Positions 30,251-63,500 of a stretch of DNA of 64,000 nucleotides are shown one piece after another. Both the position numbers and the translations under genes were made by a program. Under the pieces are notes generated by a model. It saw only the letters and a list, made by a program, of their open reading frames with translations. It was not told the origin of the DNA and made no database searches. Numbering within the stretch: position 1 is the first letter of the stretch; each line of letters opens with the position of its first letter. Origin of the DNA: an uncultured Verrucomicrobiae bacterium (GTDB lineage Bacteria; Verrucomicrobiota; Verrucomicrobiia; Chthoniobacterales; UBA10450); contig CAVSDR010000007.1 of assembly GCA_963726745.1 (NCBI GenBank), positions 64,001 to 128,000 on the forward strand. Reading direction: 5' to 3'.

Positions 30251-30264
30251 GATGCGGCTGGGTC

Positions 30265-31384: not shown

Positions 31385-31457
31385 GCGAAAAGCTTGGCAG
31401 TCGTTAGGCAAAAAATGGGCGCGGCGGCATCCGCGCGGTGGCGGAACTGGGCACGCC

Positions 31458-32552
31458 TCAGGCCACGGCGGCCACGGAGACGCGTCGCTTGCCGTTGGCT
31501 CCATCGACCGCGGGCGGAATCACGCTGTGGGTGCGCGAGAAACTCACCGGCGCGCCGTTGGCCTTGAGCGAGGCTGAGGAGGCCTCGAGGATGCGGACGA
31601 GGTCCAACCCGTCCTGGCCCCCGGTGTTGCACTCGATCCCCTGCTGGATGCAATCGACAAAGTGTTGGCACTCGATCTTCAGCGGCTCTTCCTGTTGGAT
31701 GTGCGGGATGTAACTGTCGCCGTAGTGGTAGGAGTAATGAAATTCCGCAAACGTGTCGTAGTGCGGTGGACGCTCTACGCGCACGTCATAAACGCGGATC
31801 TTGCCGTGCGTTTTCAGGTCATCGTAAACGATCATGCGGCGCGTGCCGACGATAGTCATCTCGCGCACCTTGCGGGGCTCGAGCCAGCTGCTCTGGATGG
31901 TGGCAAAGCGCTTGTGCCGGAAAGTAAGCGACATATTGGTCACGTCCTCGATGTGCGGCGTAACGTGGCCATTTCCCTGGCAATTTACCGTCGTGGGAAA
32001 CTCGCCGAGGATGTGCAGGATGATCGAGATGTCGTGCGGCGCGAGGTCCCAGGCGACATTGATGTCGTTCTGGAAGAGACCCAGGTTCAACCGGCGGGAA
32101 TTGATATAGCGGATGTCGCCAAGGTCGCCGGCTTGCACAATTTCGCAGATTTTCCGGACGGGCGAGGAGTAGAGAAAAGTGTGCCCGACCATGAGCACCA
32201 GGCCATTGCGCTCAGCGATCTCGATCAGCTCCTGGCATTCCTCCGAGGAGGAGGCCATCGGTTTCTCGATCAAGGTGTGCTTGCCCGCGAGCAGCGAAGC
32301 TTTGGCGAGCGGGAAGTGATGCTTCACCGGCGTGGCGATGACGACCGCGTCGAGCTCCAGGCCGTTAAGAAAATGCTGGTAATCGGTCAGGCCCTCGACG
32401 TCGGGGTAAAGCGCCCGCATGTGCTTGAGGCGCGACTCGTTCACGTCGCACATGGCTTTGACCCGACAATTAGCCAGCGATTTGAAATTACGCACCAGGT
32501 TGGGACCCCAATAGCCGCAACCGATGACGCCGAGAGAAACAGGCTTATCCAT
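31458..32552 (-). CDS. Gfo/Idh/MocA oxidoreductase (paralog of 21929-22975)
   Basis: GCGYWGPNLVRNF, EKP, GHTF, APHDIS and SWLEPRKVR motifs. Confidence 0.9.
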   Translation of the reverse strand: MDKPVSLGVIGCGYWGPNLVRNFKSLANCRVKAMCDVNESRLKHMRALYPDVEGLTDYQHFLNGLELDAVVIATPVKHHFPLAKASLLAGKHTLIEKPMASSSEECQELIEIAERNGLVLMVGHTFLYSSPVRKICEIVQAGDLGDIRYINSRRLNLGLFQNDINVAWDLAPHDISIILHILGEFPTTVNCQGNGHVTPHIEDVTNMSLTFRHKRFATIQSSWLEPRKVREMTIVGTRRMIVYDDLKTHGKIRVYDVRVERPPHYDTFAEFHYSYHYGDSYIPHIQQEEPLKIECQHFVDCIQQGIECNTGGQDGLDLVRILEASSASLKANGAPVSFSRTHSVIPPAVDGANGKRRVSVAAVA

Positions 32553-32556
32553 GATG

Positions 32557-33663
32557 TTATTGGTTGGCCAACGAGCGGGTCTGTCGTTCGCGCTTCCACG
32601 AGGCCCGCCACGCTGTCGCGGCCCGGCTTTCCAGCAACTGCGAAACGATCGCCGGGACGGTCTTTGCGAGGATGGCCAGGTCGAGCGCCGGAGACATGTT
32701 CTTCCCGTAGAAAATATCCATCGCGATCATCTCGCTGAAGGTGGTTTTATTTTTGCCGTTCACCTGCCAGTAGCCAGTTAGACCGGGCGGGGCGTTCACC
32801 CGCTCGCGCTGCCAGGGCTGGTAACGTCCGAATTCATGCACCGTGCAGGGCCGCGGCCCGACCAGGCTCATCTCGCCGAAGAGGACGTTGAAGAGTTGGG
32901 GCAACTCGTCGAGGCCGGCCGCACGGAGAAAGCGCCCGCAGCCGATCAGGCGGGGATCGCCCTGTGCATCCAGCTTGGTCATCGGGACGTCGGCCTCCAT
33001 CAAGCGCTCGAGGTGGGATTCGTGCAACTGCGTCTCCACATTCACGCGCATCGTCCGGAATTTTGTGATTAAGAAGCGCCGGCCATGATAGCCGATGCGT
33101 TCCTGGCGATAGAAAACCGGGCCCGGCGAGGAAAGTTTAATCCCGAGCATGATCGCCAGCATGACCGGCAACCAGAGAGGCCAGGTGGCAAGGATAAGGA
33201 AACAATCCAGGCATCGTTTCCAAAGAGGAATCTGCGCCGACTGCGGTTCTGCGGTAGTGGGCAGATCGGGCGCTTCCAGCGCAGTGGATGGGGGGGGCAT
33301 GAAGTCGAGCGCAGACGCGGCCTGGTTCGTCGAAGTGGGCGCTGGTCCGGGCTGCAGGTCGCCATCAGGAGCGAGCGCCTTGTCATGGGCGATCCGTTCC
33401 AAGACAGCGGAAGTGATAATCTGGGAAAGAGAGTTTGGGCGAGGGGGCAGCGCCGCCGCAGCCGGATTGAAGGCCTGCGGGCGAGTGCCAGGGCGCGCCG
33501 AACGGCTGCTGCCATTCCGCTTTTCCGCCAAGTGTTCCCCGTTTCGCATCGTCATTACTACGGAAAGGACGGAGTGATGGTCGGAAAGATGGAAGAAATT
33601 TGAGCGCAGGGCGGGCTGCCGCCCTTGGTCGTTCCGTCGATTGGTCGGAAAAACTCTGAGCAA
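32557..33663 (-). CDS. Priming sugar transferase (Bac_transf phosphoglycosyl transferase) with long N-terminal extension; start uncertain
   Basis: KRCLD, KFRTM, DPR, LDELPQLFNV..GEMSLVGPRP and PGLTGYWQV motifs. Confidence 0.9.
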   Translation of the reverse strand: MLRVFPTNRRNDQGRQPALRSNFFHLSDHHSVLSVVMTMRNGEHLAEKRNGSSRSARPGTRPQAFNPAAAALPPRPNSLSQIITSAVLERIAHDKALAPDGDLQPGPAPTSTNQAASALDFMPPPSTALEAPDLPTTAEPQSAQIPLWKRCLDCFLILATWPLWLPVMLAIMLGIKLSSPGPVFYRQERIGYHGRRFLITKFRTMRVNVETQLHESHLERLMEADVPMTKLDAQGDPRLIGCGRFLRAAGLDELPQLFNVLFGEMSLVGPRPCTVHEFGRYQPWQRERVNAPPGLTGYWQVNGKNKTTFSEMIAMDIFYGKNMSPALDLAILAKTVPAIVSQLLESRAATAWRASWKRERQTRSLANQ

Positions 33664-33974
33664 CTCATTAGAAAATTATGGTTAGCGACGATAAGGGTCG
33701 TATAATCGCTAGAGTGACTGAGATAACCACAAAGGTTCTCTCATCGTCAACTCTTCTCCGCGTCCATGCCGGTAAACGCGGTCGTTCTTGGGGGTGAAAA
33801 TCAGCGAATGATTTTAGGCATAATTTGTCAATGTCCTACAGCCCGCACGATCCCTGGTCTGGAAACACCTCTTCATGCCCGAAGGGGTTCAGTTGTGCGA
33901 AATTTTAAGCAGCAACGCAAGCCCTTCTTCGGCCACCAAGGCTGGAACCGGAGCGGTTCGGTGGCGACGGGCGG

Positions 33975-34196
33975 TCAGTGTAGAGCCGGCGCCGCGGGGT
34001 GCACTGCCGTCGCGGGCGAGGCGAGGAGTCCCCTGGCTGTGGCGAAGGTCGGCCGGGCTCCTGAACGATGGCGAGGCCGCTGGACGGAATGAAAACCGCC
34101 CGCATCTTCCCAGCCTTCAGGTGCGCGGCGCGCGGCCAACGCGAGCAGGCCGACGGTGCAGATACCAGAGAGCGAGAGGATCATGGCGGTGAGCAT
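33975..34196 (-). CDS. Small membrane protein with APEGWEDxxGFH motif
   Basis: ATG 34196, an N-terminal TM helix, then ARRAPEGWEDAGGFH, which resembles a small-protein family I associate with Verrucomicrobia. Confidence 0.55.
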   Translation of the reverse strand: MLTAMILSLSGICTVGLLALAARRAPEGWEDAGGFHSVQRPRHRSGARPTFATARGLLASPATAVHPAAPALH

Positions 34197-34463
34197 GGCT
34201 TCGTTTTGAGCAGGTGATGTGCCGACCTCTGAGAGTCTTTGCCGCTTCCACCTGAGGCAAGGAGTCCCTCGTTTGGAGTGGAAGCTGCTTAGATTTCCGC
34301 AGCCCCGTGTGAGAAAGCTGGTTTTGAGCGAACTTTTCTCGGAACTTTGACGACCGCATTGCGGAGAAGCAGGGAGACGGACTGCCGTAGACGGAGTTTC
34401 CATCGCTGCTTGCTAAAACACGAACCGCAGATAAAAACGACATCCCTCTTCCTTCGCCCCGCG

Positions 34464-35846
34464 ATGCGACACCTCCCCAGATTTTTCAGATTGCTTCAGG
34501 TTGCCGGCGGCATTGCGGCGACCTTGTCGGCTATTTCTTCGGCCGAGGCCCAGGTTGCGGTGGAAAAATTCCGCTCTTCGCCCTCCGAGGCGGGCGCCGC
34601 GTCGAGCCTGCCGGCTTCCCCGACGGACGAGGGCTCTCTTTCTTCCTCGGGAGTCGCGGTCGAGCTCGACGCTCCGAACGATCTCCCCACCCTGGAGGTA
34701 AATCCAGGGAGCGCGGTTTCGGCTGTGCCGAAGCGTTTCCAATACGCCGTCCGCCTGGCCGTTCGGGGTGTTTTTGACGACAACATCTACCTGCGCCACA
34801 CCCAGCCGATTGAAGATTTTTACTTCGCGATCGAGCCTGGCATTTCCCTCGGCTTTGGCGACATCGTGGGCGCGGAGATGAACTCCATCCGGCTCGATTA
34901 CGCCCCCAGCATCTTCCTCTACGGCGAAAACTCGGCCGCGAATGCGGTGCAGCACCTGGTCCGGCTGGAAGCGCGTTACCGCTTTGCGCATCTCTCGCTC
35001 GGCCTCACCCAGGAAATCCAACTGCTTGAAGGAGCGAATCCCGTGAGCGGCACCGCCGGTTTCAACCTCACCCCCACGATCAATCTCGACACGGGCGGGA
35101 ACACCTCGGTGAACATCTACAACACCCGCGCGACCTTCAGCTACGACCTGACCGGGAAGACTTTCGCCAGCGGCGGGGTGAATTTCAGCGCCTCTGAGTA
35201 CGACGTGCAGCTCATCAGCTCGCAACAGATCCAGGGAAATCTCTTCCTTAACTACATCTACAGTCCCAAGCTCACTTTTGGCCTCGGCGGCACTCTCGGA
35301 TACAACGCAGTCGAGGGCCCGAGCCCGGATCAAACTTTCGAGCAAATCAACCTGCGCCTCACCTACCAACTCAGCGGGAAAGTCAGCCTCGACGGCTCCG
35401 CCGGTCTCGAGTGGCGACAATTTGACGGCACTCTCAGCAGCGAGACCAACCTTTCCCCGGTCTACGAGCTGGGGCTCAGCTATCAGCCTTTTGACGGCAC
35501 CACGGTTTCTTTGCAGGGCTCGCGCCGGACCCAAAATTCCGCCGTCTTCGCTGGCCAGGATTACTCCACCTCGAGCATCAACCTGAGCGTCCGGCAGCGC
35601 TTCCTCCGCCGCCTTTACCTTGGGGTCGCCGGCGGTTACGAGCGTTCCGATTATTTCAATACCGTCGCGCTCGTCTCGGCCACCCGCAGCGACGATTATC
35701 TCTTCGTCCAGCCCTCGATCGATCTGACGTTGACCCGCTACTGGACCGCGGGGATTTATTACCTCCACCGGCGCGACGACAGCTCGTTCGAGACCTATTC
35801 CTTCCATGACAATCAATTCGGCCTTCGCACTTCGCTCAGCTTCTAG
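34464..35846 (+). CDS. Outer-membrane beta-barrel protein of EPS export systems
   Basis: Signal peptide ending AEA, FDDNI motif, alternating amphipathic strands and C-terminal Phe; overlaps the OPX gene. Confidence 0.8.
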   Translation: MRHLPRFFRLLQVAGGIAATLSAISSAEAQVAVEKFRSSPSEAGAASSLPASPTDEGSLSSSGVAVELDAPNDLPTLEVNPGSAVSAVPKRFQYAVRLAVRGVFDDNIYLRHTQPIEDFYFAIEPGISLGFGDIVGAEMNSIRLDYAPSIFLYGENSAANAVQHLVRLEARYRFAHLSLGLTQEIQLLEGANPVSGTAGFNLTPTINLDTGGNTSVNIYNTRATFSYDLTGKTFASGGVNFSASEYDVQLISSQQIQGNLFLNYIYSPKLTFGLGGTLGYNAVEGPSPDQTFEQINLRLTYQLSGKVSLDGSAGLEWRQFDGTLSSETNLSPVYELGLSYQPFDGTTVSLQGSRRTQNSAVFAGQDYSTSSINLSVRQRFLRRLYLGVAGGYERSDYFNTVALVSATRSDDYLFVQPSIDLTLTRYWTAGIYYLHRRDDSSFETYSFHDNQFGLRTSLSF

Positions 35847-36468
35847 CGTTCTTCTCGCGCTCCTCTTTCTCGCGTTCCCTTGCCGCGGGCAAAACGTGCC
35901 GCCAGCCGCCGCCGCGCCCGCCTCGAGCAGCAATACCGGGGTGGCTGCCAGCGGCGTGAGCGCGCCAGCAGGATACCAACTCAGCGCAAACGACCAGGTC
36001 GCGGTGGAAGTTTTCGGCGAAGAGGACCTGCGCACCAACGCGCGTCTCAATGGCGAAGGGAATCTCAGCCTGCCGCTCCTTGGCTCCGTCCATGTCGCCG
36101 GACTCACCCTCACCCAGGCCGCCGCGCGGCTGACTGAGCTTTACGGGAAAGATTACCTGGTTAACCCCAAGGTAAACGTCACCCTCGTCGGCTACGCCAA
36201 GCGCCGCTTTACCGTCCTCGGCCAGGTGAATCGCCCGGGCAGCTACGAAATGCCCGATGGCAGCCCCGGCGGGATCGATTTGCTCGAAGCTGTGGCCATG
36301 GCTGGCGGCTACACCCGCATCGCTGCGCCCGAGCGGATCAGCGTCAGGCGCGAAGGAGGCAACGGCGATCAAGTCCTGCGCGTGAACGGAAAACGTGCGG
36401 CCAAGGGCGAAGGGTCTTTCGTGGTCAAGCCGGGCGATACCATCACCGTCGGCGAAAGCATTTTCTAG
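35806..36468 (+). CDS. wza: Short OPX/Wza-family polysaccharide export protein
   Basis: Poly_export domain (YQLSAND..VFGEEDL..GNLSLPLLG..GLT), SLBB domain (VLGQVNRPG..AGG), and ends PGDTITVGESIF. Confidence 0.88.
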   Translation: MTINSAFALRSASSVLLALLFLAFPCRGQNVPPAAAAPASSSNTGVAASGVSAPAGYQLSANDQVAVEVFGEEDLRTNARLNGEGNLSLPLLGSVHVAGLTLTQAAARLTELYGKDYLVNPKVNVTLVGYAKRRFTVLGQVNRPGSYEMPDGSPGGIDLLEAVAMAGGYTRIAAPERISVRREGGNGDQVLRVNGKRAAKGEGSFVVKPGDTITVGESIF

Positions 36469-36490
36469 CTCCGCATCCCTATACCTGAAG

Positions 36491-36540
36491 CTTCCATTGC
36501 CTGCCTGCCGGAATTGCGGTAGGCCTTGAAGGAAGTTTTT
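36491..36540 (+). terminator. Stem-loop with T-tract between wza and wzc
   Basis: GCCTGCCG-GAATTG-CGGTAGGC inner stem, CTTCC/GGAAG outer stem, then TTTTT. Confidence 0.35.
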
Positions 36541-36562
36541 CCCCATCTCCCGTAAACACCCG

Positions 36563-39067
36563 ATGCCTCCGCAATCCGCCGTCTCCCCCGCTCCCGCGCC
36601 GCACCTTCCCGGCCCCGTCTTCTCGCCTACGACCGGCACCTCGATCGACCCGCATGGGGAGCGCCGCGGCTTCGATTTCCGGCAGTTCTGGCATGCGCTC
36701 ATGGAGAAGCTCTGGATCCTCGCCCTCTGTGTTTTTGGCGGCTTCTTCCTCTCGTTAGGCTATCTCGCGAAAACGCCCAAGCTCTATCAGGGCCACATCG
36801 TGCTGGAGGTCGACGTCCAGGACCCGACGCCGATCCGCTCCGAGGACCCGACGATGCGCCTGCGCGCGATGTTTCTCGCCAGCCAGGAAGCGCTGCGCAC
36901 GATCGAGCAAAACCTCACCAATCGCAGCTTGCTCGCACGCGTGATTCGCTCCGAGGGCCTGGCCGAGGATGGTGGCCGCGCCTTGCTCGGGAAATCCGTA
37001 GTCAACGATCTCGGGAAGGAAAAGGATGCCGCCAAGGACAAGGCGCCCACACCCGCCCCGTTCACCGACGCCGGTTCCGGCGGGCCCACGATCGCACAGG
37101 CTACTTTTACGCCGCTTGAGGAAGCGCTCGGCGGCGCTCTCGCGCGCATGGTCAAGCCGGTGATTCGCCGCGGCACGCGCTTGATCGATGTCTACGTGAC
37201 CAACAGCGACCCGCAGCTCGCGCAGCGTCTGGCCGATTCTGTGGGGCGCGAATACATCCGCTATTCGATCGAGCGGCGCGCTTTCAGCAGCCAGGACATG
37301 CTCCGCTATCTCATGGAAGAAGAGGAGCGCCTGAAGAAAAATCTCCAAAAGAGCGAAGCCGCGGTCGCGGAATACAAAGCCACCACGCCGGATGCGCTCC
37401 AACTCGGCGGCGGCGCAGCCACCACGGGCAGCCAGCAAGGCGCGGGCAGCAGCGGCAGCCGGGGCGGCATCGTCGAGGATCGGCTGCAGGAATTAAGCAG
37501 CAAGTTGGGCCAGGCGAAGGCGGAGCGGATGCGCCTCGAGCACGAGCTGCAGCAGATCGGGGAACTCGGCGACAACGTCAGCGGCCTTCTTGCCGTGCCC
37601 AGCATCGCCGCCGCGCCGGCAGTGGTCGACCGTCGCCGCGATGTCGCCCAGCTCGAGGCCGCGGTGGCCCAGCTTTCGCAGCGCTACAAGGACAAGCATC
37701 CGAAAATGATGGCAGCGCGCGCCGCGCTCGATGAAGCCAAGGATGCCCTGCGCCGCACCGCGCTCGCGCAGCCGGATGTCTTGCGGAACCTCCTCGACCA
37801 AGCCAAAGCGGCCGAGAGCAACCTGGCCAGCACCACCGGCGAGCAGGAACAGGCGGCGAAGAATCTCAACCGCGCCGCCATTGGCTATCAGGAACTCGCG
37901 CGCCAGGCCGAGACCGATCGGGCGCTCTACGAGAGCGTCCTTCGCCAGATCAAGGAAACCAATCTGACCAAAGATGTGAAGACGAATGCGGTGAGCATGA
38001 TCGAGCGCTCGCCGCTTCCGGGCGCGCCTGTAAGTCCGCAGCCGAAAAAGGCCATCCTGCTTGGCCTCCTCGGCGGTCTCGCCGCCGGCCTTGGTTTGGT
38101 CTACGGCCTCGACATTCTCGATCGCTCGATCAAAACCGTCGACCAGGCAGAGGCGATCCTTGGTTTGCCGGTGCTCGCAGCCATGCCGGAGATCAGCAAG
38201 GAAGACGCTGCCGAGGGGACGACAATCAAAGCCGCGCCGCCCGCAGCCAGTTACCGTCTGGTCGCGGAAGCGCCGGAAGGGCCGGCCGCAGAAGCGTTCC
38301 GGAATCTGCGCGCCTCGCTTTCGCTCCTGGGCCCGGAAGCCGAGCGCCGCGTCTTCCTCTTCACCAGCGCGGTCCCGAGCGAAGGGAAAAGTTTCTCCAG
38401 CGCGAACTACTCGTTAGCCCTCGCGCAGCAAGGTCATCGCGTGCTTTTGATTGATGGCGATCTCCGCCGTCCGAGCCTGCACAAGATTTTCCTGCCTACG
38501 CAGTCGACGCAGCAGCCCGAGGAAATTCCCGGCATCGTCGACTATCTCGTGGGCGCAACTGATCTCGCCTCCGCGGTCCATTCCGTGACTGCCGACCGCC
38601 TCGATCCTTCCCTGCAAAAAGGCAACCAATCGAACATCATCGCCGCCACTGCCGGCCAGCTATTCATCCTCACCGGCGGCCGGCGCGCGCCGAACCCGGC
38701 CGAACTCTTGAGCGGCCCATCGTTCGCCCGATTGGTCGCGGAAGCTTCGCAAATGTTCGACCGCGTGGTCATCGACACCGCGCCCATTCTCGCGGTTAGC
38801 GACACGCTTTTGATGACGCCGATGGTGCAGACCGTGTGCGTGGTCGTGCGGGCAAACAAGACGCCGCGCAATGCCGTCCAGCGCGCGCTCGGGATGCTCG
38901 CGGGCGCCGGCGGCCGGCCGGCCGGGGTGATCTTGAACCGGCTCCCGCGAAATCGTGGTGCTGGCTACTATTACTACTACGCTTCCCCCGGCTACGGCAA
39001 AGGCGAGGGCGCCTACGGGAGCACCAGTGAGCGCTCACGGCGCTCGGGCAAAACCCGCGCGAGCTAA
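36563..39067 (+). CDS. wzc: Polysaccharide co-polymerase tyrosine autokinase
   Basis: EAFRNLR, SAVPSEGKS Walker A, IDGDLRRP, PNPAELL, DTAP and a C-terminal YYYYY cluster. Confidence 0.92.
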   Translation: MPPQSAVSPAPAPHLPGPVFSPTTGTSIDPHGERRGFDFRQFWHALMEKLWILALCVFGGFFLSLGYLAKTPKLYQGHIVLEVDVQDPTPIRSEDPTMRLRAMFLASQEALRTIEQNLTNRSLLARVIRSEGLAEDGGRALLGKSVVNDLGKEKDAAKDKAPTPAPFTDAGSGGPTIAQATFTPLEEALGGALARMVKPVIRRGTRLIDVYVTNSDPQLAQRLADSVGREYIRYSIERRAFSSQDMLRYLMEEEERLKKNLQKSEAAVAEYKATTPDALQLGGGAATTGSQQGAGSSGSRGGIVEDRLQELSSKLGQAKAERMRLEHELQQIGELGDNVSGLLAVPSIAAAPAVVDRRRDVAQLEAAVAQLSQRYKDKHPKMMAARAALDEAKDALRRTALAQPDVLRNLLDQAKAAESNLASTTGEQEQAAKNLNRAAIGYQELARQAETDRALYESVLRQIKETNLTKDVKTNAVSMIERSPLPGAPVSPQPKKAILLGLLGGLAAGLGLVYGLDILDRSIKTVDQAEAILGLPVLAAMPEISKEDAAEGTTIKAAPPAASYRLVAEAPEGPAAEAFRNLRASLSLLGPEAERRVFLFTSAVPSEGKSFSSANYSLALAQQGHRVLLIDGDLRRPSLHKIFLPTQSTQQPEEIPGIVDYLVGATDLASAVHSVTADRLDPSLQKGNQSNIIAATAGQLFILTGGRRAPNPAELLSGPSFARLVAEASQMFDRVVIDTAPILAVSDTLLMTPMVQTVCVVVRANKTPRNAVQRALGMLAGAGGRPAGVILNRLPRNRGAGYYYYYASPGYGKGEGAYGSTSERSRRSGKTRAS

Positions 39068-40047
39068 GCCAGCTCCGCCAGTTCCGCCTGCACCATCTCG
39101 CTGACTAATTCCTCGAAGGTCGTCCGCGGGGCCCATCCGAGCTCGCGCTGAATCTTCTCGGGCGAGCCGACAAGCTGGGTGGGCTCGGCCGGCCGGGTCA
39201 GGGCTTCGCTCCGGCGCAGGTATTTCTCGGGAGCCAACTTCACTTCCGCGAAGGCCGCCTCCACAAAGTCCTGCACCGAGTGCGTCTGCCCCGTGGCCAC
39301 GATGTAATCGTCAGCCGTCGGGTGCTGCAGCATGCGCCACATCGCCTCGACGTATTCGCGCGCGTGTCCCCAGTCGCGTCGCGCGGAAGTGTCGCCGAGC
39401 ACGAGTTCGTCTTCCATCCCGCGCGCGATCCGCGCGACCGCGCGCGCGATCTTCCGCGTAACGAAGTTTTCCCCGCGCCGCGGCGACTCGTGGTTATAGA
39501 GAATGCCGTTGCAAGCGAAGAGCCCGTAAGATTGCCGGTAAACCCGCACCATCTGGCTGGCAAAAACCTTGGCCACGCCATACGGGCTGGTCGGGGCAAA
39601 GCGGGTTTCCTCGGTTTGCGGCGACTCGCTCGCCCGGCCGAAAACCTCCGAGGTCGAGGCATGGTAAAACTTTACCGGCTGCGGCTGGTCGCGCACGATC
39701 TCCAGCAATCGCAAAGTAGCCATCGCGATCTCTTCGCAGGTCGATTCCGGAATCTCGAAACTCAAACCAACGTGGCTTTGTCCTGCGAGATGGTAGACCT
39801 CACTCGGCCGCACGTTTGCGAAAATTCGCCGGAGCGTCGTCCCGTCCGAGAGATCGCCGTAGTGCAGCGACAGGCATTCACCGGTGCCGGCTTCTTCGCG
39901 CCGCAGATGCTCGATGCGCGAGCGCGCAATATTGCTCGTGCGCCGCACGATCCCGTGGACCGCGTAGCCTTTGCCGAGGAGCAGCTCGGTGAGATACGAT
40001 CCGTCCTGTCCCGTAATCCCGGTGATGAGCGCAATCTTCTCGGCCAT
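39064..40047 (-). CDS. gmd: GDP-mannose 4,6-dehydratase
   Basis: ITGITGQDGSYL, QSHVGLSF, SPYGVAK, NHESPRRG..FVTRKI and RDWGHA motifs. Confidence 0.95.
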   Translation of the reverse strand: MAEKIALITGITGQDGSYLTELLLGKGYAVHGIVRRTSNIARSRIEHLRREEAGTGECLSLHYGDLSDGTTLRRIFANVRPSEVYHLAGQSHVGLSFEIPESTCEEIAMATLRLLEIVRDQPQPVKFYHASTSEVFGRASESPQTEETRFAPTSPYGVAKVFASQMVRVYRQSYGLFACNGILYNHESPRRGENFVTRKIARAVARIARGMEDELVLGDTSARRDWGHAREYVEAMWRMLQHPTADDYIVATGQTHSVQDFVEAAFAEVKLAPEKYLRRSEALTRPAEPTQLVGSPEKIQRELGWAPRTTFEELVSEMVQAELAELA

Positions 40048-40089
40048 GTGGCTGTTTGCTTACCGCCCCGGGGGAGCGTGCGCAACTCG

Positions 40090-41337: not shown

Positions 41338-41361
41338 TATCGGGCAAAGCCCGGCGCGGCG

Positions 41362-42024: not shown

Positions 42025-42058
42025 AGGTGTGCTATTTGGCCGTGGCTCGTTCGCCTTG

Positions 42059-43060: not shown

Positions 43061-43068
43061 CTTGCTGC

Positions 43069-48588: not shown

Positions 48589-48596
48589 ACACCCCA

Positions 48597-52466: not shown

Positions 52467-52492
52467 GCGCGCTCACCTCACCGGGCGAAGAA

Positions 52493-53551: not shown

Positions 53552-53656
53552 AGGGTGGTCGATTCAAATTATCCCAGCGCGAGGCAGGCGTCAGCAAGGC
53601 CGCGCCTTTCAAAATCCGCATTTGCTGCCTCTTGACCTTGCTGCCAAAATCTCCGG

Positions 53657-54682: not shown

Positions 54683-55650
54683 TGAGCGTCACCTACCTCG
54701 AAGCGATCCGCGAAGCGCAGGCGCACCTCCTGCGCACCGATGACCGCGTTTACCTCTATGGCCAGGATATCGCTGGCAAATTTGGCGGCGCTTTCAAGGC
54801 GACCAAGGGTCTGGCGGAACAATTTCCCGGCCGCGTCCTGAACTCGCCGATCAGCGAAGATGCCATGGTCGGCACGGCCATCGGCGCCGCGCTCGAAGGG
54901 ATGCGCCCGGTGGTGGAGATGCAGTTTGCCGATTTCTCCAGCGTCGCGCTCAACCAGATCCTGAACAACGCCGGCACGCAGTATTGGCGCACCGAGATCC
55001 CCTGCCCGATCACTGTCCGCCTGCCGAGCGGCGGCACGAAAGGCAGCGGGCCGTTCCATAGCCAAAGCATGGAAGCGCTCTACGCGCACTACCCGGGCTT
55101 AATCGTGATGACGCCGGCCACAGTCGAAGACGCTTACACGATGTTGATCGAGGCGGTCGCGATCGATGACCCAGTAGTCTACTGCGAGCACAAGTATCTC
55201 TATTACCATCTCAAAGCCGACAAGCTGCCGACCGAAGGCCTGCCTGCGGGCAAGGCTCGGGTCGTTAGGCCGGGCCGCGACCTGAGCATCGTGACCTACA
55301 GCGTGATGGTGCACGAAGCGCTTACCGTAGCCGACGAGTTGAAACAGGAAGGCATCGAGGTGGAAGTGGTCGACCTGCGCACGATCAAGCCGCTCGATAC
55401 CGAGACCGTGCTCGCCTCGGTCGCGCGCACCGGACGTTTGCTTTGCGTGGGGGAAGCGTTCCCGTGGGGCGGTGCGACCGCGGAAGTGATCGCGCGCGTG
55501 GCCACCGAAGGCTTCCACCTGCTCGACGCCGCGCCTGGTCGCGTGAACGCCAAGGACACGCCGATCCCTTATCACCCAAATCTCTGGGCGGAACATCGCC
55601 CGAATGCGAAGTCGATTGCCGCCAAAGCGCGCCAGATCCTGAGCGAATAA
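54682..55650 (+). CDS. 2-oxoacid dehydrogenase E1 beta subunit
   Basis: GQDI..GGAFKAT, PISE, EMQFADF, HSQS and DLRTIKPLD motifs. Confidence 0.92.
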   Translation: MSVTYLEAIREAQAHLLRTDDRVYLYGQDIAGKFGGAFKATKGLAEQFPGRVLNSPISEDAMVGTAIGAALEGMRPVVEMQFADFSSVALNQILNNAGTQYWRTEIPCPITVRLPSGGTKGSGPFHSQSMEALYAHYPGLIVMTPATVEDAYTMLIEAVAIDDPVVYCEHKYLYYHLKADKLPTEGLPAGKARVVRPGRDLSIVTYSVMVHEALTVADELKQEGIEVEVVDLRTIKPLDTETVLASVARTGRLLCVGEAFPWGGATAEVIARVATEGFHLLDAAPGRVNAKDTPIPYHPNLWAEHRPNAKSIAAKARQILSE

Positions 55651-55654
55651 TTTT

Positions 55655-56905
55655 ATGCCGCAAGTTCCTATCACCATGCCGCAGCTCGGCGAATCCATGG
55701 CCGAGGCCACGATCGTCGCGATCAACGTCAAACCGGGCGACAAAGTCGCGGCCGACCAGGAGATCATCGAAGTCGAGACCGACAAAGCGGTCATGGGCGT
55801 GACCACTCCCTGCCCCGGCGAGATCGTGAAGATCGAGGCCGAAGTGAAAGGCGTCTACGCGGTCGGCGCTGTGCTTGGCTACATCGAAGCGAGCGAAGCC
55901 GATGCCGCACGCCTGGTGAAGAAAGCTCCGGCCGCGCCGCAAGGCGACGTGGCCAAGGAAGTCCCCGGCCGTGAGGAAGAGAAATCGTCCAACGGTTCCG
56001 GCTCGCATTTCCAGATCGACGAAAGCGAAGTGCGCACCTTGCGCGTGGAATCCGAAGGCCAGACCGGCGGCGGTTTGCCCGTGCCCGCGAGCGCCAAGGG
56101 TGCTGGCTATTTTTCGCCGCGCGTCCGTGCGCGCATGGCCGAGCTGCAACTCACGCAGGCCGACCTCGCGGGCATCGCCGGGAGCGGCAATGCCGGCCGC
56201 ATTACGGTCAAAGACCTGGAGAATTTCCTCGGCGGTCTCGAGGGCCAGACTGCGGAGAAGCCGAGCGCCATCCGCACCGGCGTGGCCGACGCGATGCGCC
56301 GCAGTTGGACTCGGCCGCTCGCGACCGTGGGCTTGTCCGTTTGCCTCGACCCGGTGCTGCAGGATCGCAAAAAGCGCGATCCAAAACCCGGCCCAGCGCT
56401 CTACGTCCTGCGCGCTTTAGCCATCGCTTTGTCCGAGCAGCCCAACGCGGCCTCACGCTTGATCGGCGGCCGTGCGATCACCTCGAAGTCGATCGACTTG
56501 GGCGTGGCCGTGGAAGCCGGCGAAGGGATCATGGTCCCGGTGATTCGGAAGGCGAACGAGACTTCGCTCGCCGATATGACCACTCGTTATACCGAACTGG
56601 TCGAGCTCGCGCGCAAGCGCCGCGTGACCGCGGAGATGACCGCCGGCGGAATCGCTTCCGTCTCCAACTTTGGCACCTTCGGCCTCGATTGGGGCACGCC
56701 AATTCCCCTGCCCGACCAGACGCTTCTGCTCGGTCTTGGCGCCGGTAAAAAAGCGCCTACCTGGAGCGAGGAGAAGCAGCAATTTGTTCCGACGACGCAG
56801 GCGGAGCTCACGCTCAGCTTCGATCACCGCAGCCTCGATGGCGGCGGCGCGGGACGCGTGCTGCAGCGGGTCGCAGAGCTCCTCGGCACGCCCGAAAAGC
56901 TCTAG
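55655..56905 (+). CDS. 2-oxoacid dehydrogenase E2 acyltransferase
   Basis: One lipoyl domain (ETDKA), E3-binding domain (SPRVR..GSG..GRIT..D) and catalytic DHRSLDG. Confidence 0.9.
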   Translation: MPQVPITMPQLGESMAEATIVAINVKPGDKVAADQEIIEVETDKAVMGVTTPCPGEIVKIEAEVKGVYAVGAVLGYIEASEADAARLVKKAPAAPQGDVAKEVPGREEEKSSNGSGSHFQIDESEVRTLRVESEGQTGGGLPVPASAKGAGYFSPRVRARMAELQLTQADLAGIAGSGNAGRITVKDLENFLGGLEGQTAEKPSAIRTGVADAMRRSWTRPLATVGLSVCLDPVLQDRKKRDPKPGPALYVLRALAIALSEQPNAASRLIGGRAITSKSIDLGVAVEAGEGIMVPVIRKANETSLADMTTRYTELVELARKRRVTAEMTAGGIASVSNFGTFGLDWGTPIPLPDQTLLLGLGAGKKAPTWSEEKQQFVPTTQAELTLSFDHRSLDGGGAGRVLQRVAELLGTPEKL

Positions 56906-57576
56906 AGTTTCCCGCGATTCGCGAGCGCAAAGCGCACCAGCGCGAGGCTCCCGTGGAGGTCCAGTTTGCTGCTGACGTTCTGCCGGTGCGTCTCCACGGT
57001 TCGTGGACTAACGAATAATTGCGCGGCAATTTCCTTGCTGCTTAAGTCGGCTGCGATCAGCCGGAGGACGCGTCGCTCCATCGGCGTGAGGCTGGCCAGG
57101 CCGGGATGCGCGCGCTCGAACTCGCCCGCGGCGTGCTGACGTTTCAGCAGGTGCGAGGAGAGCGCAGGGCTGAGGTAGGCCTCGCCCGCGGCCACCGCCT
57201 TGATCGCGGCCGCGATGTCGGTCACGGCACTTTCCTTGAGCACGTAACCTTTCGTCCCGAGATCGAGCGCCGCCTGGAAGACCTCCTCCTCGCTATGCAT
57301 GGTCAGGAACACGATCTCGGGACGCACCGTCTCCTGCTGGAGCGCGCGCGCGACCGCAAAGCCGTCCATCACCGGCATGTCGATGTCGAGCACGGCAACC
57401 GCGGGAGCATGCTCACGAATGGCCGCGAGCGCGCTTTTGCCTTCGCCGGCCTCGGCCACGATCAGCAGGTCCTCGTCGGCCTCGATCATCTGGCGCAAGC
57501 CCTGGCGGACAATCGGATGATCATCGGCCAGGACGATGCGAATCGGTCGCGAAATTTCAGGAGTGGTTGTGCGCAT
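56902..57576 (-). CDS. NarL/LuxR-family response regulator
   Basis: ADDH, LDIDMP, GYVLK and LTPME..SSKEIA..VETHR HTH. Confidence 0.93.
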   Translation of the reverse strand: MRTTTPEISRPIRIVLADDHPIVRQGLRQMIEADEDLLIVAEAGEGKSALAAIREHAPAVAVLDIDMPVMDGFAVARALQQETVRPEIVFLTMHSEEEVFQAALDLGTKGYVLKESAVTDIAAAIKAVAAGEAYLSPALSSHLLKRQHAAGEFERAHPGLASLTPMERRVLRLIAADLSSKEIAAQLFVSPRTVETHRQNVSSKLDLHGSLALVRFALANRGKL

Positions 57577-60526
57577 AGGGCAGGTGAATCACGATGCGGG
57601 TGCCTTTGCCGGGTGTGGTCTCAACCGAGTGCGAGCCGTCGAGCAGGCGCACCCGTTCTGCGATTCCCAGCAGGCCGAAGCCGCGCTGTTCACTCTCGGA
57701 AACAGCAGCGAGATCGAACCCACGGCCGTTATCCTCGATCGTGAGATGCACCGCGTCCTCCTGCACCACCAGGCGGACGGTCGCGTCGGTCGCGCCAGCG
57801 TGTTTGATGATGTTGTTCAAGCTCTCCTGCACGATCCGGTAGACGCTGATTTCCGCTTCCGGCGGGAAGAGGCCGGCGAGTTCATCGATATCCGCCTCGA
57901 TTGAGAGTCCGCCGCCCGGCGCAGCCTTGTTCAGCATCGAGCGCAAAGCTTTCGTTAGGCCGAGTCGGTCGAGCAGGTACGGCCGGAGGTTGTGCGCGAT
58001 TTCGCGCACCTCGCCGATGGCCTGCGCAGAGTGTTCCGTGATTTGCTCGATCTGGCGTTGCGCGCTTGGGAGATCGGTCGCGTTTTGCGCGGCCGCGAGG
58101 GCGCGGTTGTTGATCATCGCGAGGGTTTGCCCGAGGCCATCGTGCAGCTCCGCGGCGACGCGGCGACGTTCAGTCTCGTGGGCCGCAATCAGCCGCCGCG
58201 AGAAATCGCGCTGCATTGCAAAGCGCTGGCGTAATTGGCGCCCGCGCCACCAGAAGCCGAGCACCATCATCGCCCCCAGAAGCCCTGCGCCTAACGAGAG
58301 AAACCACCAGGTCTGCCAGAACGGCGGCAGCATCACGATCGGCAGACTGGTGACCGCGCTCCAGACGCCATCGCCATTATCGGCGCGCACCCGAAAGCTG
58401 TAGGAGCCGGGCGGGAGGTGCGAAAAATACGCCGTGCGCCGGGTCTCCGCGTTCGTCCATTCGCGGGTCAGGCCAGCCATTTGATACTCGAAGCGGACCT
58501 CCTGCGGACGCTGCCAGCTCAGGCCGGCGTAATGGATCTCCAGCTCTTCCTCGCCCGGGCGAAGGGTGAGCTTGCTGCCTAACGAGTGCAGCTGGTGATC
58601 GATCAGCGCGCTTTCCAGGACTACCCGCGGCGGCGCCTCGTTTTGCTTCGCCGGATCGACCACGGCCACGCCTTTGATCGTGGGAAACCAGAGTGTCCCG
58701 TCACGCATCTTCCAGCCCGCCGGCGTGGCGCCATTGCACTCGCGGCTGATCATCCCATCGGCGGAGCCGTAGCCGTAGGAATGCACCCGCGTGGCCTGGC
58801 CATCTGCGACCGCATTTAACTCCGCAAGACGGGCGCGATAAATGCCTTTGTTCCCGCTCATCCAAAGATTGCCGGCGTCATCCTCCAGGATGGAGAACGC
58901 GAGGTCGTCGTAGAGCCCTTGGTGGCTGGTAATGACGGCAAACTTTTCGTCTTTTCGCCGAACCAAACCACCGCCATGCGTGCCGATCCAGAGCGCGCCG
59001 GAGCGATCCTCGTAGAAACCCAGGATGTGATTATCCGGGAGACCATTGGCCGTCGTCCACGAGGTGAAGTTGCCGTCTGCGACACGCGTGAGCCCGTCAT
59101 GAATCGTGCCGATCCAAACATTGCCGGCACGATCTTCGAAGAGGCTTTCGACATGGGCCTCGCGCAGGAGTGGCGTCGCCAGCGCAAGCTGGCCCGAGCC
59201 ATCGGCGGCGCCGACAAAGAGACCGCGGACGGTGCCAACCCAAAGGCGGCCGGCTCGATCGCACAGCAACGCAATCACTGCGGGGATTTTTTGCCCGGGC
59301 CATAACGGCGTCTGCTGGCCTCCCTCCAGCCGAGCCAGCTCATGCCCTGGCATGCCGGGAGCGACAAAGAGTGTTCCGGTCGCGCTCCTGGCCAGAGTAT
59401 TCGCGCGCGCGTTTGCCGCCATCTGGAAAACGCCGCCTGCGAAGCGAAACAGTGCCTTGGAACTTCCAACCCAAATCGTCCCCGTTTCGTCCTGGATAAC
59501 CGGGCGGATGGAATCGCCCAGCAAGCCATCGCGGCTGGTGTAAACGCCGATGCGACCATGCCGGAGGCGGATCAAGCCATCGGCGTAGGTGCCGACCCAG
59601 AGGTCGCCTTCAGCGTCCGGATAAAGCACGCGAACGGGGGATTGCCCTAACGAGTCTTGCGTGGCGCACTCGCGAAAATCGCCGGCGGCATCTTGCTGGT
59701 AAATTTTCCCCTCGCTCGTGCCGATCCATAACCGGGCGTCCGGGCCGAAGGCGAGCGCGCTCACGCCCGCATTGAGCGGAGGCGGTTGGTCGCCACGCGA
59801 GACGAACTCTCCGCCCTCAAACCGGAGTAGGCCCTGCCCGGTCCCCGCCCATAGTCCCGTGCGATCCGCGGCCAGCGCGATCACTGCTTCCGCGCGCGCC
59901 TCTGGCAGCGGAAAGGCCGTAAAGGCCTCACCGCGAATTCGGCCTAACGAACCATCGAGGCCAAGCCAAAGATCGCCCGCGGGGTCGACCGCGAGCGCTT
60001 GCACATGGCTGGCGGACAACCCGGCGGCGGTGTCGAAATTCGTCCAGTGTCCCTCTTTCCACCGGCTGACGCCGTGGCCGAGCGTACCCACCCAGACGGC
60101 CCCAGTCGGATCCTCCGCGAGCGCGGTCACGTAGTCATCGCCCAGCCCGTCCTGTGCAGTCACAAGGCGAAAGCGGCCGTTCTCATAACGGGTGAGCCCG
60201 CCGCCCGCGGTCCCGATCCAGAGGGTGCCGGCGTGATCTTCCAGGAGCGAAGTGACATGGCTATTCGCCAGCTCCGGCGTGTTCGTCCGGTCGAAGATCG
60301 CGAAGCGCACCCCATCGAACCGCGCGAGGCCCTCGATCGTGCCCAGCCAGAGGTAGCCGTCGCGGGTGTGGGTCACGGCGAGCACGCTGTTCTGCGGCAG
60401 ACCATCTTCGTCCTGCCAAAAGCGCACCTGGTAGCGCGGCGGAAAAGTTGCCGGCAACTTCTCGTCCGCGAACAGGGGATGCGCCGCGGCACAAAAGAGA
60501 AGCCCAAGGACGACCAGACATTTCAT
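57557..60526 (-). CDS. Sensor histidine kinase with periplasmic beta-propeller and Y_Y_Y domains (HisKA_3)
   Basis: Repeated DxxGxLWIGT..GL blades, PPGSYSFRVRA, PPFWQTWWF TM, ELHDGLGQ H-box and DNGRGF. Confidence 0.92.
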   Translation of the reverse strand: MKCLVVLGLLFCAAAHPLFADEKLPATFPPRYQVRFWQDEDGLPQNSVLAVTHTRDGYLWLGTIEGLARFDGVRFAIFDRTNTPELANSHVTSLLEDHAGTLWIGTAGGGLTRYENGRFRLVTAQDGLGDDYVTALAEDPTGAVWVGTLGHGVSRWKEGHWTNFDTAAGLSASHVQALAVDPAGDLWLGLDGSLGRIRGEAFTAFPLPEARAEAVIALAADRTGLWAGTGQGLLRFEGGEFVSRGDQPPPLNAGVSALAFGPDARLWIGTSEGKIYQQDAAGDFRECATQDSLGQSPVRVLYPDAEGDLWVGTYADGLIRLRHGRIGVYTSRDGLLGDSIRPVIQDETGTIWVGSSKALFRFAGGVFQMAANARANTLARSATGTLFVAPGMPGHELARLEGGQQTPLWPGQKIPAVIALLCDRAGRLWVGTVRGLFVGAADGSGQLALATPLLREAHVESLFEDRAGNVWIGTIHDGLTRVADGNFTSWTTANGLPDNHILGFYEDRSGALWIGTHGGGLVRRKDEKFAVITSHQGLYDDLAFSILEDDAGNLWMSGNKGIYRARLAELNAVADGQATRVHSYGYGSADGMISRECNGATPAGWKMRDGTLWFPTIKGVAVVDPAKQNEAPPRVVLESALIDHQLHSLGSKLTLRPGEEELEIHYAGLSWQRPQEVRFEYQMAGLTREWTNAETRRTAYFSHLPPGSYSFRVRADNGDGVWSAVTSLPIVMLPPFWQTWWFLSLGAGLLGAMMVLGFWWRGRQLRQRFAMQRDFSRRLIAAHETERRRVAAELHDGLGQTLAMINNRALAAAQNATDLPSAQRQIEQITEHSAQAIGEVREIAHNLRPYLLDRLGLTKALRSMLNKAAPGGGLSIEADIDELAGLFPPEAEISVYRIVQESLNNIIKHAGATDATVRLVVQEDAVHLTIEDNGRGFDLAAVSESEQRGFGLLGIAERVRLLDGSHSVETTPGKGTRIVIHLPYAHNHS

Positions 60527-60574
60527 CGTGCGCAGTCCCACTAAAGATGGCCCGCGCGCTTCTGGCGATCTCCT

Positions 60575-63500
60575 TCACCGTTGGAAATGCCGGCGGATTG
60601 GCCGCCACGCCAGGAGGGCCGCGCCAATGAAAAGCATCCCCCAGGTCGCCGGTTCAGGGACAGGCGCCGCGCCGAGGTAAGTAAGGGTAATGTCGTTAGG
60701 CAAAGCGCCCCCGTCGGCATTGGCGGCGTAATTGACCGAAAAGATGCCCGCGGGACTGGCGTAGACTCCGCCCGGCGCGTTGGCAAAATTGCCGATGACC
60801 GGAGAGCTGCCGCCGTCGATCACGATCGCGAAGACCTGGTTCTGTCCCGGCGTAAAACCATTGACCAGGCTCACCATCAAATTCCCGGCGAGGGTCAACT
60901 GGCCGGACATCAAAACTTGATCATAACCGGTGCCGCCGTTCGTCCCTCCGAGTTCGATGCTCAGGGTCGAGCCCAGGCCTAACGAGAGATCGTTCGCAAT
61001 GGTCAACTGTCCGGGGCTATTTCCCGGAGCGAGCGTGCCGCCTGCTTGCACGCTGACGGGACCAGCAATGCGCCCGCCTCCGCCGAGGGTAGCGCCGTTT
61101 TGCACCGCGACTGCGCCGGAACCGGTGCCGGAAAGGGCAGGATTGTTCACCAGCAAAGTCCCGCCCTGCACTACGGTCCCGCCGGAGTAGAGGTTGCTGC
61201 CGCTAAGATTGAGCGTGCCGCCGCCGGTTTTGTTGAGCTGCGTGGCCAGGCCGTTGTCGCCATTCGCGATGCTCCCTGGAACGCTAAGGGTGCCGCCATT
61301 GGCTACCGAGATCGTGCCGGCGCCATTCGCGGTGGGCGCTTCCAGATGCAGCGATCCGCTGTAGGTGGAAGTCGCGGAATTGTCGGCGGTCACGCTGCCG
61401 CGAACGTTGACATAGCCAGTGCCAGTGGTGACCGCGCCACCATTGATCGCGAGGTTGGTGATGGACTCCGCGAAGGAGTTCAAATCGAGCAGGCCGCCGG
61501 CGTTCACCGTGATGCTCTTGTCGTCGCGGACCTGACTGGACGCTCCGTAGCGGACGATGGTGCCGCCATTCACCGTGAGATTGCCGCCCATCGCGCTGCC
61601 GAAAGCATTCTCAGGTCCTTGTCCGCGCTTGCTCAGCACCAAAGTGCCGCCGTTCACCACTGTGTCCCCGGTGTAGGTGTTCGGTGTATTGCCGGAGAAG
61701 ATCAGGCTGCCGCCGCCCTGCTTGTTGAGTTGCGCCGGCAGGCCGTTGTCACCGTTGGCGATCACGCCGGAAATGTCGAAGAGTCCTCCGGCTGCCACCG
61801 AGATATTGCGCGCGGCATTCGCCGTGGGCGCTTCGAAATGCAGGTTGCCGGCGTAGCTCGAGAAGGTCGAGTTGTTGGCGGCGATCGTTCCGCGCACATT
61901 CAGGTAACCGGCGCCGGTGATAACACTGCCGCCGTTAACCGTGAGATCCACGATGGACTCGGCAAAGCCGTTCAAGTCGAGCGTGCCCGCGTTGATGATG
62001 CTCTTATCGTCGCGCACCTGGCTGTCGGCGCCGTAGCGAACGGTCGCGCCGCTGCTGACAAAAAGATTGCCGCCCATCGCGCTGCCGAAATTAGCCGGCG
62101 CGCCGACGTTGGTCTTCGCCAGCACGAGCGTGCCGTTGTTTACGAAGGTGTCACCGGCGTAGGTGTTGGGCGACGCGCCGCTGAATGTGAGCGTGCCAGC
62201 GCCGCTCTTGACCAGGCCGCCACTGCCGCTGATCACGCCGGCAAAGGTCTGCGCGTTCGGGTTGGCAAAGGCGAGGGTGGCGTTGTTGATGATGTTGCCG
62301 AGAACGCTGCTGTTCGCGGAGGTGCTGTTGCCGAGCTGCAAGGTCCCGCCGCTGATGGTGGTGCCGCCGGTGTAGGTGTTCGCCCCCGCGAGCGTGAGCG
62401 TGCCAGCGCCGGACTTGGTCAGACCTCCATCGCTCGCAGCATCGCCAGCGATGGTGGAATGAATCAGCGGGGCAGCGAGGCTGACGTTGAAGCCGTTCGT
62501 ATCGATCTTCGCGCCGCCGTTTCGCACCTGATTTGTCCCGACGCTCACAGCGAAGTTCGCAGTCGCCTGGAGCGTGCCGCCATTGAAATTGAAGAGGCCG
62601 TTTCCAGCGCTGATCGCGTTTAATCCGGAGGTGCGGAGCAGACCGCCGTCGAGGTTATAGCTGCCTCCGGCGCCGAAGAGGATCTGGGTGGCCGTGACGG
62701 TGCCGCCGCTTTGCTGCACCAGGCCGGAAGTTGGTTACGCCTAGCCTGAAAGGTTACCGACCGCGAGGGAGGTGCTCGCGCCACTGACCGGTAAGGTCGG
62801 GTGCCACGGAAACACCTCTAGCTCGATCGAAATGGGTCAAGCCATCAACTTTGTAGGAGCCCGATGTTCACGCCATTATTCGCGAGGCTGTCGAGATCGA
62901 GCTTGTGCGCCGGCGACGAAGGGATATCGTCCCCCCGATCGTTGTTGAAGCCGCTCTTCGCGCCCACGGCACCGGTGGAGACTGGTTCCCCGAGAAGCTG
63001 AGGGTCCGATATCGTTGTCTACTTGTGTGATCCTTCAAGATCCCGCCGGAAACGCTGAGATCGGCAGTCACCGTGCCGCCCAGGGCTGAGGAAAGAAGTG
63101 CCGGTAAGGCTGCCGTTCTGGATCGTGCCGCCGCTAGGAGCTGCGGTTCTGGCCTCCAGAGATGGATATGCCGCCCAGGTTGATCGCTCCCACGGTCTGG
63201 CTGGTGCCGCCGAGGTCGAGATCAGAGCAGAGCTGTAAATGTTCAAGGTATTGCCGGTGATTTCCCAGTGTGCCGGCGCCGGTGAGTCGCCAGGATTGTG
63301 AAGTTGAAGTTCGTGAGGTGATGGGCCCGGAAAACGCATTAGGGGCGCTTAAGGTCAGAGGCCCCGACCAAAGATAAGCCCGCCCGTGTTGGAGCTACTG
63401 AGGGGAGAGCCAAAGGTTGATGCTTTGAGTGCGAGGCTTGTGCTGAAGATAAAGATTGTCCAGCACTATTGGCGATGCGGCCCGAGGGGTCGCTCGAAGT

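Follow-up and report, generated by a model that had tools for sequence, protein, structure and literature searches.

The window, by which we mean the whole 64,000-nucleotide stretch of DNA that was analysed, comes from an uncultured Verrucomicrobiae bacterium and consists of a gene cluster for polysaccharide biosynthesis and export, followed by core-genome DNA with genes such as ispH and smc. The core-genome part is studded with a 9-mer, TCGTTAGGC, here called motif A (Table 1). The window holds 21 exact copies of it, 11 on the plus and 10 on the minus strand, where dinucleotide shuffles predict 0.32 copies and none of 100 shuffles reached 21. An initial annotation of the window had listed these copies and put the expectation at well under 1; its positions and strands all agree with our count, as do the one-mismatch sites that it gave at 41005, 50507 and 59645 (there are 16 such sites in the window) and the reading frames that it named, Ser-Leu-Gly, x-Pro-Asn-Asp/Glu, Arg/Gly-Leu-Thr and Val-Val-Arg. 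It was silent on the motif-free positions 1-31400, on the restriction of the motif to one family, on its drift between species and on a second motif. Positions 1-31400 contain no motif A at all and form part of the largest A-free gap of the genome, which measures 35 kb. Three sites that are mismatched in this genome are exact in congeners, namely 45902 (Table 1), 50568 (two mismatches here, exact in nine congener loci) and 54238 (one mismatch here, exact in five), which indicates that sites turn over. At 57952 and 58577 the short-read contigs of one public run show no difference from the assembly; this agreement excludes assembly error only, as there may be a relation between the run and the source sample. 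The public runs contained 8-10% of the words, in contigs that were short and mixed.

Genome-wide, we found 1312 copies (631 plus, 681 minus) in 3.41 Mb, that is 0.39 per kb, with 0.32-0.53 per kb on every one of the seven contigs. Coding frames were assigned with a frame hidden Markov model that tolerates the frameshifts of the assembly, and by these frames 1060 copies lie inside coding segments, 89 at their edges and 163 outside. The frameshifts, which affect many genes, are probably long-read errors; in the window, smc (48712-52466) is spread over three frames and a DegT aminotransferase gene (30265-31504) over two. Could codon usage produce the coding copies? Genome-wide synonymous shuffles yielded 1-13 copies and within-gene synonymous shuffles 19-27 (five runs each), and the observed number exceeds these codon-aware nulls, a match to which the initial annotation had named as grounds for rejection, by about 46- to 118-fold. 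With a third null, in which shuffling was conditioned on the adjoining residues, three shuffles left 263-306 copies; this null is contaminated, its codon pools including the motif's own codons. In this genome exact motif A encodes 506 of the 839 SLG tripeptides, 221 of 347 xPN[DE], 250 of 582 [CRSG]LTx and 83 of 454 [FLIV]VRx. Copies occur in both orientations and occupy each of the four open frames, as was to be expected if the constraint acts on DNA, which the initial annotation had proposed, and the use of both orientations implies that the signal lies in double-stranded DNA. The preference is graded, being strict at positions 1-7, looser at 8-9 and preceded by W-N-N-D-C; the genome holds 1123 one-mismatch words, and no conserved flank was seen farther than 5 bp from the motif. 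From this graded preference over about 14 bp we infer that a protein reads motif A. Explanations by mobile or REP-like repeats, by a preference for certain peptides or by errors of assembly would each have to account for these properties, and we regard all three as refuted by the short flanks, by the predominance of coding copies in four frames and by the occurrence in 150 relatives; nothing speaks for them in the case of motif A, and some other frequent words in the relatives are of these kinds.

Is motif A a peculiarity of this genome? Relatives of the ispH of the window are titled Chthoniobacterales, Spartobacteria or Verrucomicrobiae metagenome-assembled genomes, and we take the family to be GTDB UBA10450, which includes Ca. 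Udaeobacter. The latter has been described as being among the most dominant groups in soil (PMC7343977). In 150 further genomes of the family, from 36 genera, motif A occurs 13-4336 times each, so that the absence from relatives that would have spoken against the initial annotation was not observed. By comparison, 199 genomes from elsewhere in the phylum have 0-18 copies each and 109 genomes from 15 other families of the order 0-40 (the two samples overlap by a few genomes), and 146 of the 151 family genomes exceed 40. These outgroups serve as the baseline for the genome counts, the reversed motif being a commoner word and unsuitable as a control. Among the 150, five are unpublished (G002, G007, G014, G136, G150; G numbers denote relatives, G000 the genome under study and L numbers sampled loci), and the family result is independent of them. 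Motif A therefore marks one Chthoniobacterales family. Its density over the 151 genomes has a median of 0.097 per kb and a maximum of 1.36 (G050), with a 300-fold spread across the family and a 16-fold spread within a single genus, and 36 of the 151 are motif-rich (at least 0.25 per kb). The ratio of the 9-mer to its 7-mer core falls from 0.75 in genus g26 to 0.14 in genus g7, and both the flanks and the tolerated mismatches differ among G000, G120 and G050 (398 and 400 kb samples). The preferred bases of motif A drift between species.

This drift bears on the idea that motif A is the target of a methyltransferase, its enrichment being due to methyl-directed repair or to methyl-dependent uptake, as has been proposed for the cyanobacterial word HIP1, which has been tied to methylases and transformation (PMC13756078). 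Genes resembling HsdM, Dcm and YhdJ methyltransferases and Mrr are present in the genome; however, the HsdM- and Dcm-like matches lie in islands or at contig ends, Dam was not found in the genome, a graded preference of about 14 bp with species-specific tolerated bases is no fixed site, and the restriction signature here is the avoidance of GTAC and CTAG. We consider methylation very unlikely as the cause. The two avoided words stand at 0.16 (GTAC) and 0.28 (CTAG) of expectation genome-wide, and the depletion of GTAC suggests a restriction system for that word.

A polar signal of the Chi or KOPS type, read by AddAB or FtsK, would also be a short, asymmetric, over-represented word, and AddAB is present in this genome. 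The copies of motif A are, however, not polar: 538 of 1022 (52.6%) lie on the inferred leading strand, with replichores inferred from weak skew in four contig blocks, and a 1.03 Mb contig of a single skew carries 198 plus and 210 minus copies. This lack of strand bias, which bears out the initial annotation, largely refutes such a signal and leaves it hardly credible. AddA does not track motif A either, and was rejected as its reader: it is found in 23 of 36 motif-rich and 90 of 115 other genomes and in the motif-free genome G024, and has no match in 11 of the 13 genomes of the motif-rich genus g26 (with a single query, which divergent copies may escape). In g7, too, 11 of 13 genomes lack a match; in these genomes AddA may have been lost or replaced by a divergent system.

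Where motif A can be placed seems to depend on what the local sequence tolerates. Convergent spacers carry 1.86 copies per kb, tandem spacers 0.63-0.72 and divergent spacers 0.23, and 185 of 2835 called stop codons fall inside the motif. Since divergent spacers are the poorest, motif A is no promoter element; the promoter enrichment of a transcription-factor site was found neither for it nor for motif B (see below), both of which are lowest in divergent spacers. The initial annotation had suggested a comparison of core and accessory genes, and motif A is indeed scarce in accessory islands such as the first 31 kb of the window. Its density is 0.73 per 10 kb at a GC content below 0.60 versus 4.8 at 0.64-0.66, and proteins with an identity to relatives of 80% or more carry 0.25 per kb, those at 50-80% 0.36-0.46; ribosomal and translation genes have 2 copies versus 5.4 expected, which are small numbers. 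The 13 gaps that we inspected, the largest A-free ones and some free of both motifs, contain polysaccharide clusters, arrays of large secreted proteins, the rRNA operon, dnaK/groEL and restriction islands, besides a number of ordinary genes, as labelled from N-terminal sequences. Motif A fills tolerant space.

Conservation in orthologues, another check that the initial annotation had named, shows that this placement is maintained. Where sites of this genome could be aligned, 27 of 62 are exact in G120, from the same genus, and 29 of 74 in G050, from another; only 6 and 7 of the orthologous sites have one or two mismatches, and the remainder have three or more. At aligned codons the sites are therefore kept whole or absent, and they also turn over. 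The proteome records the motif. In this genome SLG stands at 1.74 times and PN[DE] at 2.18 times expectation, versus 0.92 and 1.17 for reversed controls, and the other two encoded frames are not enriched (1.04, 1.11). G050 reaches 3.3 times for SLG and 7.2 times for PN[DE], all four encoded frames are enriched in G050 and G120, and a motif-poor sample gives 0.83 and 1.36. Motif A has thus raised its encoded tripeptides 1.7- to 7-fold; the DNA uptake sequences (DUS) of Neisseriaceae and the uptake signal sequences (USS) of Pasteurellaceae are reported to about double theirs (PMC2817400). In their maintenance and their effect on the proteome, the properties found here are those published for DUS and USS (PMC2817400, PMC2397512).

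Motif A is not the only such word. The strongest signal after it, motif B, has the consensus RAWTTAGCCRRCRANWTS and is a quasi-palindrome of 16-18 bp, with 3381 sites genome-wide at a matrix score of at least 15, a few of them counted on both strands. It has 2959 coding sites versus 96 in one synonymous shuffle and is non-polar (1311 of 2620). Its strict pattern occurs 991 times here, 159 times in G007 (from another genus), 35 times in G099 and 0-19 times in the other 148 relatives; a looser pattern occurs 1128 times here, and each of 200 other genomes in the phylum sample has 0-30. G007 has a form of its own, WTAGMCRRCRCGATCW, with 97 core matches in 147 kb, a result that rests on an unpublished genome. 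Motif B is almost never conserved in congeners, and the residues at its sites are less conserved (68%) than those flanking them (74-76%). Its sites avoid one another mildly, and the 35 kb gap that has no motif A has 20 of them. Motif B would represent another specificity, younger than motif A and independent of it, and its cause may differ. A further word, motif C (RARSATCGACAW), was found in six other genomes, where its core matches 240 times in 222 kb, by plain count about one per kb. It was met in motif-A-poor relatives, at L085, L087, L106, L110, L123 and L018-L024 (the last from G034). Other frequent words were rejected as further recognition words: those of L131 and L092 are peptide words, and those of L150 and of L096, L098 and L146 are REP-like repeats, belonging to the intergenic families GTAGGGCAAGCG... 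and CGCGGCTCGGGATGAC....

Table 1. Motif A and motif B in the window (window coordinates)
Feature	Position	Strand	Remark
Motif A stretch	31401..60985	.	21 exact copies, core-genome DNA
Motif A, plus copies	31401, 36752, 40087, 42778, 44287, 45528, 49513, 50123, 55262, 57952, 60693	+	
Motif A, minus copies	43067, 43242, 44636, 45740, 47333, 54114, 58289, 58577, 59942, 60977	-	
Motif A copy as TAA stop of ispH (gene 40090-41337, minus)	40087..40095	+	reverse strand supplies the stop
Motif A copy as TAG stop of lipid A acyltransferase gene (43069-44076, minus)	43067..43075	-	
Motif A copy in smc	50123..50131	+	exact in 4/11 congener alignments
Motif A copy in 2-oxoacid dehydrogenase E1 gene	54114..54122	-	exact at aligned position in 5/13 congener alignments
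One-mismatch site TCGTTCGGC	45902..45910	+	exact motif A in 5 congener loci
Motif A-free stretch	1..31400	.	polysaccharide biosynthesis and export cluster, GC 0.57-0.61, 17 motif B sites
Motif B	31..62092	.	51 sites, matrix score at least 15
Motif B, examples	42895, 43302, 45815, 49904, 50400, 51436		position of the T of TAG

Motif A is, then, a maintained, graded, non-polar and family-restricted DNA word that reshapes proteins. What does it serve? We give about an even chance to the reading that it is a DNA-uptake or transformation tag like DUS and USS, in which uptake is named as the step by analogy only. A transformation role is favoured because the documented words of similar density and behaviour are linked to uptake, because the density varies as it would for a facultative process and because non-homologous islands lack the motif. 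We propose that a family-specific, sequence-specific DNA-binding protein recognises motif A, most likely in a natural-transformation pathway comprising a type IV pilus, a ComEA-like protein, ComEC, DprA and ComM, and that fragments bearing a site would be taken up or recombined more often than site-free ones. By repeated homologous replacement, site-bearing alleles would win wherever the protein sequence tolerates them; motif A would thereby fill permissive codons, stop codons and convergent spacers and change amino acids, and would be kept out of recent islands, rRNA and highly constrained genes. Competence genes, for which the initial annotation had advised to look, are present, including ComEC, DprA, ComF, ComM, PilB/GspE, PilT, PilC and secretins, together with 18 pilin-type N-termini and two cassettes of the PilV/PilW/PilX type, one of which adjoins dprA and ssb. 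The cassettes lie at L160:7578-10133 and L161:12383-14936 and include DUF7305 solenoid pilins resembling ComZ. A strong match to a ComEA-type helix-hairpin-helix (HhH) was found in 13 of 14 congeners, and in 31 of 36 motif-rich versus 48 of 115 other genomes, kin among these not being independent. In this genome, motif A pairs less than 200 bp apart are depleted (ratios 0.15-0.39, with recovery by 300 bp), and positions compatible with the peptides hold 20 such pairs versus 52 expected. Such short-range exclusion is consistent with a benefit that saturates within each short fragment.

Several observations weigh against the uptake reading. The short-range exclusion is not seen in G050 (83 close pairs versus 81.5 expected), in G120 (10 versus 10.1) or in the pooled loci (16 versus 15.4), which are 21 loci picked as motif-rich out of 80; even spacing as a general property of motif A was therefore rejected, as it holds in this genome and fails in relatives. 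G050 retains same-strand tandem copies 10-13 bp apart, whereas in H. influenzae a second USS less than 100 bp away is reported to give no extra uptake (PMC7811141). Pairs arranged as inverted-repeat terminators were not found in this genome, where 1 of 324 adjacent plus/minus pairs is closer than 30 bp, and G050 has a few inverted pairs with no excess over other orientations; about half of DUS and USS are reported to sit in terminators (bioRxiv 2025.10.24.684340; cf. PMC3630211). Tandem copies with no spacing and the lack of terminator pairs together form the main genomic case against a plain equivalent of the USS. Motif B is not excluded near motif A (pair ratio 1.0-1.25), unlike what two tags of one uptake step should show. 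Transformation data for the family were not found in the literature searched. The ComEA-like gene is split here, its nuclease part ending before the HhH and a half-HhH lying on another contig; ComEA-like genes also occur in 13 of 13 members of one motif-poor genus, and G024, which is motif-free, likewise has ComEC, a ComEA-like gene and pilus ATPases, so that gene presence shows capacity only. The split pieces map to G000 C4:17263-17958 and C2:230178-230279 (L008:1474-1600), with the half-HhH at the edge of a low-GC island.

Nor was a receptor found that tracks motif A, two ComZ-like pilins having been profiled of the 18 pilin-type proteins. Pilin X2 (C3:585488) counts against the uptake reading as well and was rejected as receptor, with orthologues in 15 of the 36 motif-rich genomes; in 18 of these 36 the query had no match. 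Its model (predicted local distance difference test 81.5) has Thermus ComZ as the only Foldseek match under an E value of 0.001 (E 1e-6, with a TM score of only 0.2), and ComZ is described as a DNA-binding tip pilin (PMC6561018). Pilin X1 (G000 C6:624655) was rejected because it follows neither motif, having close orthologues in G099, G126, G107 and G024 and none in G007; a sequence search of solved structures with X1 gave no match. ComZ-like pilin matches number 0 to 9 per family genome, and none of the 22 genomes with at least four is motif-A-rich, although kin are again not independent. Among PilA-like genes, three stand in tandem, interleaved with membrane glycosyltransferase-like genes, at G000 C5:155162-158680 (L163), two of them nearly identical, and a fourth paralogue lies at C3:918199. 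Mimicry of the motif by phages was rejected too: 0 of 38 viral-contig loci had at least four dispersed copies, which is weak evidence, as it comes from two close-pair scans and the hosts are unknown.

A different explanation is that motif A is the site of an abundant, sequence-specific chromosome-binding protein of the nucleoid type, whose tiny benefit per site, in compaction, supercoiling, replication or repair, could be selected in huge soil populations. Accumulation in G050 is unsaturated, with 120 of 149 SLG and 133 of 150 xPN[DE] filled, spacers at 2.95 copies per kb and tandem copies retained; the contigs here are evenly covered; and motif B, which enters islands without motif A, has the shape of a dimer site. 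In the spacers of G050, tandem motif A is crowded (L261-L280, L408-L427), and the genome-wide density of 1.36 per kb is above that published for DUS. A structural need, however, should not vary 300-fold in a family and 16-fold in one genus. The even coverage of seven contigs also means that no domain is preferred, spacers of the promoter type are avoided, and HU and ParB paralogues were rejected as readers, with only one HU and one ParB in the genome. Helical phasing, sought in 800 kb of G050, was discarded, as tandem copies, spaced 10-13 and 20-25 bp, create the apparent period of 11-12 bp, which is inseparable from tandem duplication. Sites of matS, SlmA and Noc number in the tens and are domain-restricted. 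Motif B has the length and near-symmetry of such dimer sites, parS included, but motifs A and B have thousands of sites with no domain restriction, B is nearly species-specific and A is asymmetric. A chromosome-binding protein accounts better than transformation for the tandem arrays and motif B, and overall we rate it, the chief rival of the uptake reading, as possible but doubtful.

A site-by-site bias inside the cell at recombination, whatever the entry route of the DNA, would have a protein bound at the motif shield incoming DNA from degradation or let the motif strand win heteroduplex repair. The all-or-none conservation, the independence of neighbouring sites in most relatives and of A from B, the non-homologous islands without motif A and the lack of a tracking pilin are all consistent with it; no such protein was identified, the exclusion zone below about 250 bp in this genome is left unexplained, and AddA is found in 2 of 13 genomes of motif-rich g26. 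We judge this bias unlikely. In the boldest reading, a fast-switching recognition system of this family would rewrite genome and proteins within the lifetime of a species, with motif A ancient and family-wide and motifs B and C new in single lineages. Sites would be favoured singly, without saturation, unlike known uptake sequences, and the cause would be either a new kind of drive acting during recombination or a protein akin to chromatin whose specificity can be exchanged; we offer this tentatively, as a proposal that is more probably wrong than right.

How does motif A compare with the known words? Like the Neisseriaceae DUS (GCCGTCTGAA, with receptor ComP), it is a short asymmetric word on both strands, restricted to a family with dialects (for DUS, PMC3630211), and abundant at permissive core sites and absent from new genes (for DUS, PMC2397512). 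DUS are reported at 1892 in 2184 kb, about one per kb (PMC2397512), against which motif A has 0.39 per kb here and up to 1.36 in G050. It differs in its unrelated sequence, in another phylum, in the lack of inverted-pair terminators, in having 81% of copies in genes versus 34.5% for DUS, and in that no receptor was found for it. With the Pasteurellaceae USS (AAGTGCGGT, ACAAGCGGT), whose receptor is reported to be PpdA/ComN-like (bioRxiv 2025.06.16.659825), it shares a 9-bp core, weaker flanks, a mostly coding location, graded tolerance of mismatches and, in this genome, even spacing; it lacks the downstream A/T tracts, and its relatives keep tandem copies and show no spacing. HIP1 (GCGATCGC) is likewise lineage-wide, very abundant and conserved in coding and non-coding DNA, and is said to spread by substitution, some species having further iterated words (PMC13756078); motif A, in contrast, is non-palindromic, has no Dam-type site, occurs in one family only and is graded. 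The likeness to DUS and USS drawn by the initial annotation holds for most genomic behaviours tested; the terminators are missing, and no receptor was found. Motif A works like them at the genome level; we do not class it as one of them, as its role in uptake is conjectural, terminators were not found and spacing is mixed.

Two tRNA genes may be recorded in passing. A tRNA-Thr(CGT) gene lies at 16430-16504 of the window, within the polysaccharide cluster between two genes of the same strand, and ARAGORN called a selenocysteine tRNA at G000 C5:34716-34811.

A full-text literature search for four motif strings returned one unrelated paper, and searches on the lineage together with uptake, competence or over-represented words returned no description of the motif, with subscription journals mostly and supplements wholly outside their coverage. 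Dense words that invade coding sequence are documented for Neisseriaceae, Pasteurellaceae and cyanobacteria, and motif A would add a lineage in another phylum, the uncultured Chthoniobacterales of soil. Because density ranges 300-fold over the 151 genomes, the matrix drifts and new words arise, drive versus selection can be tested by comparison, and the same variation provides a screen for the binding protein. If motif A is an uptake tag, these soil bacteria would exchange DNA selectively among kin, and the tag would be a handle for DNA delivery and for binning.

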